Source of the DNA: a virus
Lineage: Duplodnaviria > Heunggongvirae > Uroviricota > Caudoviricetes
Virus record (IMG/VR): IMGVR_UViG_2585427725_000018
Direction: 5' to 3' (one strand)
DNA length: 35,588 bases
Below the pieces are notes generated by a model that searched no databases, was not told where the DNA came from, and worked only from the letters and a program-made list of their open reading frames with translations. Shown piece after piece: positions 3,978 to 13,769 of this stretch. Each line of letters opens with the position of its first letter. The first letter of the stretch is position 1. Position numbers and translations under genes: made by a program.

Positions 3978-4037
3978 CTGCTCCCTCCCTGTGCGGCATG
4001 GTCGCATGTGCGTGCGGAGGGGGTTACTGCTTTTTGT

Positions 4038-4055
4038 TGTCGCCGGGTCGGGAGA
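4038..4055 (+). promoter_or_regulatory. Candidate Ogr-dependent late promoter element upstream of FI (TGT-N12-AGA)
   Basis: TGT cgccgggtcggg AGA centred about 88 bp upstream of the FI ATG. The same TGT-N12-AGA arrangement appears in the O/P divergent region. Late promoters of this family carry a TGT-N12-ACA element near -55. Confidence 0.3.
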
Positions 4056-4134
4056 ACGGCGCAGGGGTGAGATTACGCGCGTGGTGGGTGATGATTGTTG
4101 CCGAATCATTTAACGGATACAAGGGGCTGAAGCT

Positions 4135-5319
4135 ATGAGTGAAACTCGTTTTCATGGTGCCCGTGTTACGGAAAGTACCGACCTGGTAACAGCGATTAAT
4201 GATGTTGATTCCAGTGTTATCGGTATCGTGGCAACGGCGGATGATGCGGACGCGGAGCTGTTCCCGCTGAACAAGCCCACACTGCTGACCCGCGTCAATG
4301 ACGTGCTGGGAAAATGCGGAACAACGGGGACGCTTTATCGTGCGCTTAAGGCCATCGCAGACCAGGTGAGCACAAAGGTGATCGTCGTTCGCGTGGCTGA
4401 ACACAAAGAAGAAGACGGAAAAACGCAGGATCAACTGGTTATCGGTGGTTCTGAATCTGACGGCAGCTATACGGGGATGTATGCGCTGCTTGTTGCAGAG
4501 CAGGATGAAAGCATCGGATACCGTCCGCGTATTCTGGCCGCGCCGGAGCTGGACACGGAGGCGGTAACAAAATCCCTGTGCGTGATTGCAGGTAAACTGC
4601 GCGCGTTTGTGTATGCCTCATGTCACGGCTGTAACACGATGGCTGAGGCGATTACCTACCGCCAGAAATTCAACGAACGTGAGGTGATGCTCTTATGGCC
4701 AGACTTCATCGCCTACAACCCGAAAAGTGGCAAAAACGAAACGTTCCCCGCGCCTGCCTATGCGTGCGGCCTTCGTGCGTACATTGACCATGAGCAGGGA
4801 TGGCACAAATCACTGTCCAACGTTCCGGTTAAAAATGTGCTGGGGATGTCGAGGCATGTGTTCTGGTCGTTGCAGGCCGAAGACAGCGATGCCAACAGCC
4901 TCAACAACAAAGAAATCACGACCATTATTCGTCGCAACGGGTTCCGCTTCTGGGGCAACCGCACACCGGAAACGAACGCCTACATCTTTGAGGTGTATAC
5001 CCGAACCGCACAGGTGCTGGCTGATTCAATTGCGGAAGCGCAGTTTGAAACCATCGACAGTCCACTGACGCCTGCGAACGTGAAGGATGTTATCAGTGCC
5101 ATCAGGGCAAAACTGGATTCGCTGGTTACTGCCGGGAAACTGATTGGTGCGGAGTGCTGGTATGACGTGGTGGATAACGGCACCACGAATTTACGTCAGG
5201 GACGTGTGCGTATTCGCTACAAATATACGCCCGTTCCGCCACTGGAAGACATGGAGCTTTACCAGACGTTTACTGATGAATTCTTTGGTCCCGCATTTGC
5301 GGTGCTGGGAGGTGCCTGA
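4135..5319 (+). CDS. FI: Tail sheath protein FI
   Basis: 394 aa, strong similarity to P2 FI along the whole length (e.g. LRAFVYAS, LLWPDF, DHEQGWHKSLSNV, IRRNGFRFWGNRT, YTPVPPLE). AAGGGG RBS. Confidence 0.95.
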   Translation: MSETRFHGARVTESTDLVTAINDVDSSVIGIVATADDADAELFPLNKPTLLTRVNDVLGKCGTTGTLYRALKAIADQVSTKVIVVRVAEHKEEDGKTQDQLVIGGSESDGSYTGMYALLVAEQDESIGYRPRILAAPELDTEAVTKSLCVIAGKLRAFVYASCHGCNTMAEAITYRQKFNEREVMLLWPDFIAYNPKSGKNETFPAPAYACGLRAYIDHEQGWHKSLSNVPVKNVLGMSRHVFWSLQAEDSDANSLNNKEITTIIRRNGFRFWGNRTPETNAYIFEVYTRTAQVLADSIAEAQFETIDSPLTPANVKDVISAIRAKLDSLVTAGKLIGAECWYDVVDNGTTNLRQGRVRIRYKYTPVPPLEDMELYQTFTDEFFGPAFAVLGGA

Positions 5320-5831
5320 TGGCTGTACCAAAACATCTTCGCTTTTTTACGTTGTTTGTGGATGGTGAAAACGAAGTGGGTAAAGTGACATCCGTCACGC
5401 CGCCCAAACTGACGCGCAAAACCGACAGCTATCGTGGTGGTGGCATGATGGGGGCGGTAAGTATTGATCTCGGTCTGGACGACTCCGCGCTTGATGCGAG
5501 TTTTGTTATGGGGGGAGCTGTTCGTGCGCTGTTCCTTAAATATGGCGGCACGATTGACGGCACGCTGCTGCGTTTTGCGGGTGAATACTACACCGATGCA
5601 GAAAGCGATCTGTATGAAATCGAGATGCGCGGACGTGTGACGGAAATTGATATGGGGGAAGCCAAACAGGGCGAAGCCACATCACACACTTACGCTGTCA
5701 AAAACACCTACTACAAGCTGAGCGTTAACGATCGCCCGCTGTGGGAAATCGACCTGTTGAACCACATCTACCGGAAGGACGGCAAGGACATTGTGCCTGA
5801 CCGTATCCGTTCCGCGCTTGGGCTTGGCTGA
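5319..5831 (+). CDS. FII: Tail tube protein FII
   Basis: 170 aa; ATGA start/stop overlap with FI; GGGAGGTG RBS; conserved position after the sheath gene. Confidence 0.9.
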   Translation: MAVPKHLRFFTLFVDGENEVGKVTSVTPPKLTRKTDSYRGGGMMGAVSIDLGLDDSALDASFVMGGAVRALFLKYGGTIDGTLLRFAGEYYTDAESDLYEIEMRGRVTEIDMGEAKQGEATSHTYAVKNTYYKLSVNDRPLWEIDLLNHIYRKDGKDIVPDRIRSALGLG

Positions 5832-6261: not shown

Positions 6262-6425
6262 TCACCCTGGTGTGCTTTGAGCACATCGAAGATCTGGTGG
6301 CAGATATCGCCGCCATTTTTAACTGGTCGCCCGCCGAAATCTTCATGATGACGCCCGGCGAAGTGGTTAGCTGGCGTGAGCGGGCGGCACTTCGCAGCGG
6401 GAATGCAGACAATGAAGACTCTTGA
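5887..6425 (+). CDS. Tail assembly chaperone E+E' (programmed -1 frameshift product)
   Basis: The -1 frame is open from 6159 to the stop at 6423-6425 and encodes ...FNWSPAEIFMMTPGEVVSWRERAALRSGNADNEDS, similar to the P2 E' C-terminus. The shift is predicted at the A7 run. Confidence 0.7.
6157..6163 (+). other. Slippery heptanucleotide (AAAAAAA) for the E/E' -1 frameshift
   Basis: A7 run decoded as AAA AAA in the E frame. The -1 frame has a TAA immediately upstream (6156-6158) and is open downstream, so the shift must occur here. Confidence 0.6.
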
Positions 6426-9890: not shown

Positions 9891-10454
9891 ATGCTGAATA
9901 ATAGAGATATGAATATTAATGAACTTAAAGATTGTATTCACTATGAAGTAATCGGTAGCGAGCGTCCTTTCTCCTGGCGAAAGGCAATTGTTCGCGCAAT
10001 AAAACATAGAAGAGTTCGTTATTTATTTTGGTGGCGCATAGCCAAATACCTTTTTGATAAAGGCGGATACTGTCGGAAGATTGCGGGGAAAATAGAACGT
10101 TTCATTCTTGATAAATATAATGTAACAGTCCCTTTAACTGTAAATATAGGGAAAGGCTTTGATATTTCTTATCTCAACAGTGTTGTTATCGGTCACAAAG
10201 TAACAATCGGTGAAAATTGTTCAATAAAACCAAGGGTAACTATTGGGCTGCGTGGTGATTTTAATGATATGGATATTGTTATAGGACATAATGTGACCAT
10301 TGGTTGTAATGCCACCATTCTTGGTGGCAAAGTGCGTATAGGAAACAATGTCACAATAGGTGCTCATGCATTGGTATTGCATGATATTCCTGATGATTCA
10401 ACATTCATCACTAAATTTCAGTCTGAAGTTATCTGCTCGTCCTCCCGCACATAA
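9891..10454 (+). CDS. Hexapeptide-repeat (left-handed beta-helix) acetyltransferase, CysE/WcaB-like
   Basis: Tandem hexapeptide repeats ([51 protein letters not shown]) after an alpha-helical N-terminal region ([14 protein letters not shown]). AT-rich. Start uncertain (9891 or 9909), neither with a strong SD. 3' end overlaps the convergent gene G by 37 bp. Confidence 0.7.
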
Positions 10455-11035
10455 CCCTGATTCATCAGCTCTGGCCATACGATATCCGGAGCTGTACTGG
10501 TGTCAATTCTACTCACTAATACTCTGTATTTTCTCCAGGAATCCAGTTGTGAATTTTCCTCGTTTGTTGCTATTTCAAGATTAACTGCATCCTGCAGAAT
10601 TGCGATGTTATCTGTTGCTTCCTGGATCAACCTTGCCTTTTTCTCTTCCGCTTCCCGTATCCGAAACAGTTTTTCTGCTTCCTCATCCTTCACCCAGGAT
10701 ACGCCGTCCCACTTCTGATACTCCCCTGCTGGCGACAACCAGGTGACATTCTCTGGTAGCGGTCCGGGCTCAGAAATAAACAACGCGTCCCCCGATGCCA
10801 CGTCATAGACCGTTTTACCACGATGGTCTTCAACAAGATGCCACGATGCATCATCACTGTTGAAAACAGCCACGAAGCCAGCCGGAATATCTGGCGGTGC
10901 AATATCGGTACTGTTTGCTGGCAGGCCTGTATGAGGCGGAATGTATGCGTCACCTTCACCAATAAATTCATTAGTTCCGGCCAGCAGATTATAAATTGTT
11001 ATGGTCCGTGGTTGTTCACTCATTCTGAAATCCAT
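10418..11035 (-). CDS. G: Tail fibre assembly protein G
   Basis: Conserved Tfa C-terminus ([23 protein letters not shown]). ATG at 11035 with GAGG about 5 nt upstream; the track start 11041 is a GTG. Confidence 0.8.
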
Positions 11036-11043
11036 GTTCACCT

Positions 11044-11946
11044 CTACTTAATATCAGAGACAGAATATTGTTTGTTGAGCGTATGGGTGTGAGCACCAAT
11101 AACGATGCTACTTCCGTGGCTATGTGCGCCAGAGATGACATTACCTACGGGATTTTCTGGATTAATCCGGTGTATATGCGAACCAGGGCGAAACCGGTTA
11201 TTAGCCTGATGTTGTATCAGTACATCATCAGCCTGATGTTCAGGGTTAATACAGACCTGCCCGGAACGTGAGCAATATGTCCGATAATCGCCGCATCCAA
11301 TATATTTAGTATCCGCATAACGGCAAACAGAATTACCCGGACGGTATGCATATGTGCCAAATACTGCCGACTGGCGGGATTGTGCGTATTCCCAGTTAAT
11401 TGATTCTGTTTTTTTATTAAAGTTATCCCATGCCTGCTTCATCTGCCGGGCAACACTTTCAAACGGCACCTGACCACATCCGGCTCCCATTGCAGGGAAT
11501 ACCACCGTTTTTATTTTCCTGTCTGTCGTTGCGTGTTTATTGTGCTGAAAGATGGCAAGCAGAGCGGCCCAGGTTGCGTTATATACAGCGTCTGTTCCGT
11601 CAATTGTCAGCGGAACACGCATTGTTGGCGCATGTACCAGCCAGGGATGATGATTATGCCCCGTTTCAATAACAAATGCAGAACCTACAGGCTGCTCGCC
11701 TAGATATTCACGAAGAATATGATTCTGAACGCGGGACTGTAACTGAGTACCGAAGAATGCGGTAATGGCGGCATCAACACCGCCATCCATCAGGCCGAAA
11801 CTATTTGCCGCACTTACCATGCAGTTAAATTCCCTGATTGTTTCAAATGGCTTTCCGACAATATTCACATTATCTGCATTTGCGAATACCCGCTTAAATG
11901 CTTCAGCCATTTCTGTTACTGGTGCAGAAAGAATGAGCGTAATCAT
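11044..11946 (-). CDS. Macro-domain protein fused to a tail-fibre-tip-like His-box C-terminus
   Basis: N-terminal roughly 190 aa carry macro-domain signatures ([20 protein letters not shown]...; [15 protein letters not shown]). C-terminus contains GxHxH repeats ([19 protein letters not shown]) like those at the C-terminus of H. Start ATG overlaps the H stop (ATGA); GAGG RBS. Confidence 0.75.
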
Positions 11947-13769
11947 GCAAGCCTCACAATATAGTTAAATGCGATGTTTTTGACAGTGTTTTCCGCGTTA
12001 CCAGCAGCGTTAACGGTGATGGTGTGTCCATGTGAACCAATCGCAACAGAGTGCGTATGAGCGCCAATACCAACAGTGTGTGCATGTGCCCCAGCACTTG
12101 TAGCGGTACCTGATACTGAGTGGGTATGTGCGCCAGAAGAAGGCACAGTTCCATTCCCCACCACCGTGCCACTTGATGAACCATCCAGCCAGTCGAAATT
12201 CATACCGCCACTGTTTGGTCTCCTTAATGGAACGGTATGAGTATGTGCGCCAGCACTATTTGCAGTACCAGATACATTGTGGGTATGCGCACCTGTGTTA
12301 TTCGTTGATTTAGTACCGTAATCAAACGACGATGTGGTTTTCGTACCCAAATCCGTATTGGATGCGCTGGCGCTGTGGGTGTGCGATTTAATGCCATCCT
12401 GTTCCTGAGACAATACGGCCCGACCAGTGGCGGGGTTTCCTTTGATTGTCCAGCCACGCATATCAGGGAGCACACCAGAGGGATAAGCTACTGCAAGTTT
12501 CGGGTATGCTGATTTGTCAAAAGCCTGCCCCACCATGATAGCGTAACCGTCAGGCGGCGTATCTGACGGCCACGGCAGAGGTATTCCCGGTGGTAATGCT
12601 TCAATTCCCTTTGTGCCATCAAAAGCAACACCACTGATGGGGTGTGCTGTTTCCAGTTTACTTGCAGATACTGCGTTACCTGTTGCGGATAATGCGCCAA
12701 TATCCTGCACTGTGGGCTTGTTTTTATCCGTGTAAGTGCGGTACCAGATGGTTTTTTTTCCCTTGTCCAGTATCACCCCGGTAAATTGTGCCCGGTGTTC
12801 TTTTGTGGTCGGATCTGAATCTTCCAGCCCTGTGGTGATCCTGACTATTCCGCCGATGATTTCGCCAAACACTTCAATCAGGCAGCCGCCCAGGCCGATA
12901 TCACCGTACCCCGTGTCAGTAAGCACGCAGTGCTGTGACAGCGAAATATTAGCCCTGAATATCCAGCTCCCTGTTCTGAAGGCGCCACGCTCATTCAGCC
13001 ACTCCACGAATTGTTCCGTTGTCCAGCGTTGTCCTGCTTTACCTATGTACCCGTTTTTTGCATAAACGCGTGGTGTGCCCACGTTGATCAGGAACAGCTC
13101 CTTGTTGGGGATGTCCTCACCATTGCGGTTTTTCGCAAGCCGACCATCAGCGTTGTCCATGGCGATCTTTATGGCCTTTGGCGTGGCTGCCCGGGTCTCT
13201 GATGTACTGGTGGTGTCGCTGCTTAACTGAGTAAAACCTTTTGTGGTCAGCGAGGCATCCGGGTGACGTCGTGACTGTTCATGCTCTTTCAGTTTGTCAT
13301 CCACGTAATCCACTGTGGCCATCACCATGGTGTTATCCACGGTAAGCGCCACGGTGGCAGTGCTGGATACGGTCAGAATGGTGCGAAATGTTTGTGCACG
13401 TCCGGACCCTTCGGCAACGGTTGGTTTGTAACTTTCGGCAGTATTGCCCACCGCGATTAAATCGCCGTGCTCATCAAATACACCAATTTCCCGGATCCAG
13501 AATCCGCCCGTTTCAGGAGGAATAACCAGCTCCGCAATAATGCGGTTCTGATGTGTTGCGTCCAGGATGACGCGATTAACAGTGTGTCGCCACACCTCAT
13601 GCACCAGACGGATCTGCTTACTGTCTGGTGTGGGCAACGTGCCGCCACCGTCGCCCACGGCCATATGAGTCAGGCGGACAGGCTTACCATCTGGCGCGGC
13701 TGCCTGAGCTAATTTTTTTGCACCCGTATCGGTGATAACGGTTTTAAATTTTCGTGTTGTGGTACTCAT
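11943..13769 (-). CDS. H: Tail fibre protein H
   Basis: 608 aa. N-terminal about 200 aa closely match P2 H ([49 protein letters not shown]). C-terminal His-box repeats GAHTHSV...GAHAHTV...GAHTHSV. Confidence 0.9.

Follow-up and report, generated by a model that had tools for sequence, protein, structure and literature searches.

ADP-ribose chemistry underlies DarTG, CmdTAC, Thoeris and SIR2/DSR defence, with macro domains as its principal erasers and readers, and to our knowledge the sole phage macro-domain enzyme characterized in counter-defence so far is AdfM of the jumbo phages. AdfM removes DarT2 ADP-ribosylation and counters DarTG2 (PMC13309987), and sensitivity to type II Thoeris, in which the signal is His-ADPR, is determined by side tail fibres and the chaperones that go with them (bioRxiv 10.64898/2026.06.04.730250); neither study deals with the family described here. 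We analyzed a tailed-phage sequence of 35,588 nucleotides (IMG/VR record IMGVR_UViG_2585427725_000018; this whole stretch is called the window below), in which a gene for a macro-domain protein lies at 11044..11946 on the minus strand, between the tail fibre gene H and the tail fibre assembly chaperone gene, tfa. The protein belongs to PHROG 2613, a macro family that differs from AdfM in class and in context, and our tentative reading is that it is a late-made cytoplasmic enzyme, or possibly a binder, of an ADP-ribose derivative, most plausibly serving as a counter-defence or fitness factor.

Macro domain and C-terminal tail

The 300-residue open reading frame (ORF) that an earlier note on this DNA had pointed out was confirmed on the minus strand at 11044..11946, where it encodes 300 amino acids plus the stop. 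The Pfam Macro model (PF01661; cut-off 22 bits) aligns along its whole length, 1-118, to residues 44-169 of the product and scores 68.2 bits (E = 7.7e-19). Residues 1-270 match positions 1-271 of the 274-position profile of PHROG 2613 (E = 2.1e-146), a family that carries the label 'unknown function'. An AlphaFold2 model built with an alignment of 104 relatives reached predicted local distance difference test (pLDDT) values of about 65-90 across residues 1-180, lower in the loops, compared to a mean of only 32 for a single-sequence run, and the predicted model has the three-layer alpha/beta/alpha architecture of a macro domain. Foldseek returned 72 matches in the PDB at E<=0.001, every one of them a macro domain, the top one being yeast Ymx7 (1njr, E = 9.6e-9), and the closest solved structure by sequence was TTHA0132 (E = 1e-4 with the single sequence and 8e-6 with a profile). 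Domain search and structure prediction thus agree on the macro fold that had been proposed for the N-terminal part of the protein. The domain is placed at residues 1-185 (11392..11946, minus strand) by the model and fold searches, the invariant residues and the ratio of nonsynonymous to synonymous substitution (dN/dS).

Within this domain, the motif N48-x6-G55-G56-V57-D58 has the same spacing between Asn and Asp as the MacroD catalytic motif. Residues N48, D54, G55, G56, V57, D58, G154, G156 and G158 are invariant in the 104 family members, as are the P107-T-M-R-V-P motif and the G154-A-G-x-G158 loop, and the ADP-ribose pocket is apparently intact. Models of described macro classes scored below their thresholds: the NCBIfam equivalogs for YmdB and O-acetyl-ADP-ribose deacetylase gave 49.9 bits at best against a cut-off of 246, and Macro_2, the Ymx7 family (PF14519), gave 24.1 bits against a cut-off of 27, Ymx7 being nevertheless the best structural neighbor.

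The domain is followed by a Cys-rich linker of residues 186-245 (11212..11391, minus strand), in which C225 and C232 are invariant, C208 is nearly invariant and H237 is frequent in the family alignment, and by a His-rich tail of residues 246-300 (11047..11211, minus strand). Model pLDDT falls below 50 for residues 186-245 and below 35 for the tail as a monomer, and nothing in Pfam or the PDB matched the C-terminal 120 residues. The tail carries the motifs GSHIH (255-259), GAHSH (273-277) and GAHTH (284-288), and it matches the HxH region of the adjacent fibre H in BLASTP (E = 0.001, 41% identity over 37 residues), which bears out the earlier observation of fibre-like His motifs at the C-terminus. 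At least two HxH motifs are present in the tails of 86 of 103 full-length relatives, with a spacing of mainly 9-11 residues, similar to the 9, 9 and 14 of the fibre tip; G273 is invariant and A274, H275 and H277 nearly so across the family, and in some Salmonella proteins the tail consists of clean repeats of 9 residues, such as IGAHTHTIDIGAHNHAIHTG. At the level of sequence, these fibre-like motifs are well beyond chance and conserved family-wide. The likeness is at motif level only, since Pfam PF03335, the 14-residue fibre repeat, gave no match at E<=10 with two tail variants. The His tail is hypervariable across the family in both length and sequence, and the third HxH motif is missing from many alleles (GTPTHT, GAPTHT). 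A recent copy of the 3' end of the adjacent fibre gene was considered as the source of the tail and ruled out, the nucleotide matches between the two being only 15-18 nt long.

Two side observations concern this part of the protein. At two loci of Izhakiella australiensis, another Cys/Gly/His-rich sequence (CGCTATTDWHPDMW...CDCGCGWG...) takes the place of the part beyond residue 195, with the HxH ending kept, and the tail region there is overlapped by a long alternative-frame ORF; from this replacement, the tail region seems free to change while it stays open and His-rich. In Salmonella phage SEN34, an orphan fragment at 4001..4183, homologous solely to the Cys-rich residues 184-244 (59% identity), follows a tail assembly chaperone gene and an acyltransferase gene, and looks like the remnant of a former macro gene.

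The fibre-macro-tfa cassette and its distribution

Within the P2 group, the window is P88/Xuanwuvirus-like, and its alignment with a prophage of E. coli 2013C-3181 shows 99.6% identity across 6 kb. Its fibre gene H (11943..13769, minus strand, 608 residues) encodes a Phage_tail_fib N-terminus, Phage_fiber_2 and, toward the C-terminus, Collar and a tip of five HxH 'Phage_fiber' repeats (Pfam). The minus-strand junction reads GTG AGG CTT GCA TGA TTA, so that the macro ATG (11946-11944) overlaps the fibre TGA (11945-11943), and a GAGG Shine-Dalgarno sequence (11952..11955, minus strand) can be read within the final H codons, 5 nt before the macro ATG. Both the overlap of the start codon with the H stop and the good ribosome-binding site reported earlier are therefore found at the junction itself, and together they support the co-synthesis with the fibre that had been thought probable. 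On the other side, the tfa or gpG-like chaperone gene (10418..11035, minus strand; Pfam Caudo_TAP, E = 1.8e-39) begins with an ATG at 11035, 8 nt past the macro stop and preceded by an AGGTGA Shine-Dalgarno sequence. This start matches the NCBI annotation in a 99.6% identical prophage, the ORF itself being readable from 11035/11041. Caudo_TAP (PF02413) found no match in the macro protein, and the genuine Tfa is the neighboring gene.

Because the macro gene occupies the translational-coupling junction of fibre and tfa, it is probably made late in lytic growth alongside the fibre and the chaperone. Two other modes of expression were ruled out. A frameshift fusion of H and the macro protein at the ATGA junction finds no slippery heptamer in GTGAGGCTTGCATGA, and expression in the lysogen from a promoter of its own is contradicted by the count of promoter and terminator signals, 8 versus 7.6 expected from shuffled sequence, and by the embedding of the gene in the late operon. 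Under the late gene control of P2, a position in the late operon rules out a lysogen-expressed role in phages of this type.

The gene is an optional part of its cassette. In phage 613R2 and the lambdoid phage ev099, the alignment to the window breaks off at 11035 and picks up again at 11942, and a 906-bp unit (11036..11941, minus strand), consisting of the macro gene and the spacer with the tfa Shine-Dalgarno sequence, is therefore precisely present or absent; in the macro-less form, the fibre stop overlaps the tfa start directly. This macro-less junction was found in 3696 of 5426 complete E. coli genomes, at 6326 matching places, compared to 128 of the 5426 genomes for the macro gene (131 places, 22 of them on plasmids), and roughly 2% of such E. 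coli cassettes thus carry the gene. Fibre tip and chaperone clearly work without it, and the commonness of the macro-less junction in E. coli genomes indicates that the macro gene is dispensable for fibre assembly.

The exchanged span is larger than this unit and is a classic host-range cassette. The window shares 89-97% nucleotide identity over just ~10471..12605 (minus strand), which covers the fibre from about residue 388, the macro gene and tfa, with an N15-like plasmid prophage, a P1-like plasmid and another P2-like prophage, and proteins 96-99% identical to the window macro protein occur in E. coli prophages. Beside the cassette, a 187-residue hexapeptide-repeat acetyltransferase (Pfam Hexapep, phrog_2154) is encoded at 9891..10454 (plus strand) by a gene that runs toward tfa and shares 37 nt with its 3' end. 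The GC content of this gene is very low, 0.34-0.39 versus 0.52-0.60 in the backbone, it travels with the fibre cassette in 613R2, the P1-like plasmid and O157:H7 prophages, with the macro gene or without it, and it is probably a lysogenic-conversion gene for surface sugar acetylation.

The family is widespread in databases and common in prophages of E. coli and Salmonella. At E<=0.001 there were 1330 proteins, in clusters of up to 868 members, and NCBI gives the name 'macro domain-containing protein' or 'phage tail protein' to many listed entries from E. coli, Salmonella, Erwinia and Citrobacter. Phage Chuche, SEN4/SEN5 and Gifsy-1 (STM2588.1n) have the order fibre, ATGA overlap, macro gene, tfa in their annotation, and the same order is present in an N15-like linear plasmid prophage, a P1-like plasmid, an O157:H7 prophage and Erwinia and Izhakiella genomes; the backbones that carry it are P2-like, lambdoid, N15-like and P1-like. 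Among 80 loci in IMG/VR, the macro gene overlaps by 4 nt, in 77 cases, an ORF whose product ends in [FY]NYIVRLA, the same C-terminus as in H, the remaining 3 being cut by a contig end, and in 78 a Tfa homologue starts -11 to +30 nt from the macro stop. Homologues do therefore sit beside fibre genes, in line with what the earlier note had asked about. Its belief that the arrangement was undescribed stands in part. The arrangement is already in databases, in Gifsy-1, SEN4/SEN5, Chuche, thousands of prophages and PHROG 2613, and the macro fold is ordinary, whereas functional or descriptive treatment is absent from the literature searched: no paper was found there that discusses or tests the PHROG 2613 macro protein or its position between fibre and tfa, and the SEN4/5 paper holds no virion proteomics.

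The full-length tailed form was found solely in Enterobacterales. A contig of a metagenome-assembled genome labelled Bacillota (JAEWTL010000041.1) carries a 91% identical copy, which is probably a binning error. Stand-alone macro domains of ~195 residues, with ~50% identity, are encoded by chromosomal genes in Chloroflexota, Cyanobacteria, Acidobacteria and others; these are ordinary cytoplasmic genes, and the neighborhoods of 57 cellular homologues revealed no partner gene that is conserved. Eukaryotic homologues are fused to WD40, RRM or dual-specificity phosphatase domains. The label 'tail protein' on the macro proteins of the Pseudomonas jumbo phage Noxifer and of Rhizobium phage P106B was rejected as a guide to function, the context in both being small non-structural genes, and it looks like a name carried over from the annotation of the enterobacterial family.

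These relatives bear on one alternative, in which the protein clears by-products of KptA 2'-phosphotransferase RNA repair or of NAD breakdown as an ADP-ribose-1''-phosphate phosphatase and has no immune target. Ymx7 and Poa1p are ADP-ribose-1''-phosphate phosphatases, and such metabolic clean-up would fit both the best structural neighbor, the yeast ADP-ribose-1''-monophosphatase Ymx7, and the cellular homologues that stand alone without a conserved partner. There are no RNA-repair genes within the phage cassette, however, the host already has YmdB-type macro enzymes, and the rarity of the gene among cassettes and its recent spread, described below, are left unexplained. We consider this explanation improbable.

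Selection on the cassette and the possible role of the protein

Within the cassette, constraint is strongest on the macro domain and nearly absent from the His tail. Residues 1-185 have a mean pairwise identity of 85%, a dN/dS of 0.09-0.14 and a synonymous divergence of 0.11-0.18. From residue 186 to the end, mean identity is 61%, the Cys-rich region (186-245) having a dN/dS of 0.13-0.35 and a synonymous divergence of 0.09 and the His tail (246 to the end) a dN/dS of 0.45-0.85 and a synonymous divergence of 0.06-0.25. The corresponding values are 69%, 0.15-0.40 and 0.37-0.49 (last 150 codons) for the fibre tip, and 68%, 0.17-0.19 and 0.26-0.35 for Tfa. Synonymous divergence is 0.06-0.18 through most of the macro gene versus 0.26-0.59 in the flanks, and macro domains that are >=97% identical occur beside fibre tips with a mean identity of 80% and beside Tfa of clearly distinct types, the identity of Tfa falling to ~5% between near-identical macro alleles. 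The low synonymous divergence of the macro gene and the near-identical domains beside divergent fibre tips indicate a recent spread into diverse cassettes. This pattern is that of a conserved enzyme lately moved into many cassettes, unlike a receptor-binding part.

The same values bear on whether the gene has a function at all. A passenger ORF kept open merely to bring ribosomes to tfa would be consistent with the optional presence of the gene, with the near-neutral tail and with two conserved-site substitutions in the allele of the window, whereas a dN/dS of ~0.1 and active-site residues that are invariant across Escherichia, Salmonella, Erwinia and Izhakiella argue for a selected protein. 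A spacer ORF is also unnecessary, because macro-less cassettes couple tfa straight to the fibre, and we regard a functionless passenger as highly improbable.

The reading that we tentatively favor is of an ADP-ribose-processing macro enzyme that would be closest to the Ymx7 or ADP-ribose-1''-phosphatase branch, with a MacroD-like N-x6-GGVD motif. An ancestral macro gene would have gained the Cys-rich segment and a short, degenerate G[AS]HxH tail; the gene rides as optional cargo in a lambda-Stf-type host-range cassette (fibre tip, then tfa), supplying its own Shine-Dalgarno sequence for tfa. The protein would act on an ADP-ribose-derived target within the cytoplasm of the infected cell, where it may strip ADP-ribosyl marks, or may break down or sequester an immune signal or a toxic metabolite that derives from ADP-ribose, and it would thereby be a counter-defence or fitness factor that moves with host-range cassettes among unrelated temperate phages. 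The His tail would lie outside the functional core, probably for oligomerization or metal binding, or might be a weakly constrained remnant. A narrower form of this proposal, which we hold to be doubtful, is that the protein hydrolyzes or sponges an ADP-ribose-derived signal (Thoeris His-ADPR, gcADPR) or reverses ADP-ribosylation by a toxin, and is genetically hard-wired to the fibre and chaperone genes, the products of which such systems would sense. If so, a swap of the cassette would change receptor specificity and post-entry immunity evasion together.

Several observations weigh against a cytoplasmic counter-defence enzyme. We know of no activity, substrate or phenotype on record for the PHROG 2613 family, and counter-defence genes are usually expressed early, the macro gene being late. 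The second loop, G154-A-G-C-G158-Q, is without the aromatic of MacroD, C157 being replaced by Tyr or Phe in just 9 of the 104 relatives; this loop we take to align with the G-[VIA]-[YF]-G loop of MacroD, in which the aromatic lies over the distal ribose. DarG models matched over ~40 residues each, with E = 0.066 for NCBIfam and E = 0.0059 for PADLOC, which leaves the protein outside that family, and BLASTP to PhiKZ gp104 (AdfM) gave E = 0.74, with no detectable similarity; by these scores, a DarG- or AdfM-type enzyme was ruled out. With the NCBIfam equivalogs, the DarG models and AdfM all unmatched and the MacroD aromatic absent, the domain appears to fall in a branch without a characterized member. 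The copy in the window may itself be impaired, since it has substitutions at two conserved positions: D41N (codon 41, 11824..11826), common only to the window and E. coli 2013C-3181 at a site where 103 of 104 relatives have Asp and 88 of 101 distant representatives have an acidic residue, and C202R (codon 202, 11341..11343), unique to the window at a Cys that is nearly invariant elsewhere. A physical association with the fibre could explain equally well why the gene lies between the fibre and chaperone genes and why the tail is fibre-like. In Microcystis phage Mae-JY35, moreover, a 185-residue macro protein of the same subfamily (4935..5492; PHROG 2613, E = 2e-51), which is without the His tail, is encoded by a gene that overlaps its neighbors in the structural module, between virion structural and DNA ejection proteins. 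This independent tie of the macro branch to virion genes hints at virion association in at least one lineage.

A virion-associated accessory of the fibre is the main rival reading, and we judge it unlikely. The HxH tails would form a trimer or mini-fibre, possibly aided by Tfa, that decorates the fibre or baseplate, and the macro domain would bind or modify a phosphorylated sugar structure of the cell surface. The invariant location of the gene, which is coupled both to the fibre gene and to the chaperone gene, tail motifs and spacing that mirror the fibre tip, tail variation that resembles a host-range determinant and the Mae-JY35 gene would all fit, as would the frequent NCBI name 'phage tail protein', which is merely an annotation. 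The same fibre tip and Tfa do without the macro gene, however, and variability within the cassette is lowest in the candidate 'binding' domain, the reverse of what is seen in receptor-binding proteins. In addition, there is no recognizable attachment domain, the N-terminus belonging to the macro fold; the tail is near neutral (dN/dS up to 0.85), often loses its third HxH motif and falls short of PF03335; and we know of no extracellular ligand or substrate of a macro domain. If it were nevertheless true, no earlier case of a macro domain that acts outside a cell would be known to us.

The two virion-borne roles suggested in the earlier note fared less well. A receptor-modifying tip enzyme is weakened by the dispensability of the gene, by the conservation of the enzyme domain against variable tips and by the lack of a known extracellular substrate, and by inference the counter-defence reading fits the data better. 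Co-injection of the macro domain is judged unlikely because fibre tips stay outside the cell, which leaves no plausible route in a P2-like virion.

The likeness of the tail to the fibre could also be explained by a protein that guards the fibre inside the cell, with the tail mimicking the fibre tip and recruiting the enzyme to the Tfa-fibre complex, where it would de-ADP-ribosylate the fibre or chaperone or shield them from immunity. Gene placement with 1:1 translational coupling to fibre and tfa and the fibre-like tail are consistent with this, as is the role of fibre and chaperone in determining sensitivity to Thoeris II (bioRxiv 10.64898/2026.06.04.730250). With the macro domain controlled for, a weak residual covariation of the tail with the fibre tip and with tfa was seen (partial correlation r about 0.31 each), which would also fit, although linkage confounds it. 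Against such recruitment stand the weakly constrained tail and the near-identical macro alleles found alongside Tfa types down to ~5% identity; we know of no report of ADP-ribosylated fibres or chaperones, and we consider this reading rather improbable.

The family is found in well-studied prophages of major pathogens, among them Gifsy-1 of Salmonella Typhimurium LT2 and P2-like prophages of E. coli O157:H7, and it has spread recently among four unrelated phage backbones. The system is easily tested because natural cassettes with and without the macro gene exist. If a role in counter-defence were true, swaps of tail fibres would carry immunity evasion along with receptor specificity, which would be relevant to host-range engineering.

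Comparison with described systems

Among characterized macro enzymes, the protein shares the N-x6-GG-V-D spacing with MacroD1/2, YmdB, OiMacroD and TTHA0132, and its G-x-G-x-G phosphate loop resembles that of TTHA0132; unlike the MacroD-type hydrolases, it does not have the aromatic of the G-[VIA]-[YF]-G loop. To Ymx7 (YMR087W, 1njr), its best structural neighbor, there was no significant sequence match in the PDB, and Ymx7 is eukaryotic, monomeric and without a His tail. AdfM (PhiKZ gp104) is likewise a phage-encoded macro domain and provides the counter-defence precedent (PMC13309987). Unlike the window protein, AdfM is TARG1/ALC1-like with a catalytic Lys, comes from nucleus-forming jumbo phages, is encoded outside a fibre module and has no His tail.

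The tail recalls the iron-binding HxH needle of T4 gp37 and lambda Stf-type fibre tips in its G[AS]HxH motifs, its period of 9-11 residues and the hydrophobic positions after the motifs, as in fibre H. In contrast to that needle, the tails of this family have one to three motifs, often degenerate, and are near neutral, and trimer formation or metal binding would be a conjectural likeness drawn from the sequence. The closest described relatives are Gifsy-1 STM2588.1n, SEN4/SEN5 gp19 and Chuche CDS0053, which are of the same family, with 63-85% identity, the same gene order and GAHSH in all of them. Compared to the versions of Gifsy-1 and SEN4/SEN5, those of the window and Chuche have an extra insertion of 24-28 residues that brings an additional G[AS]HxH motif.

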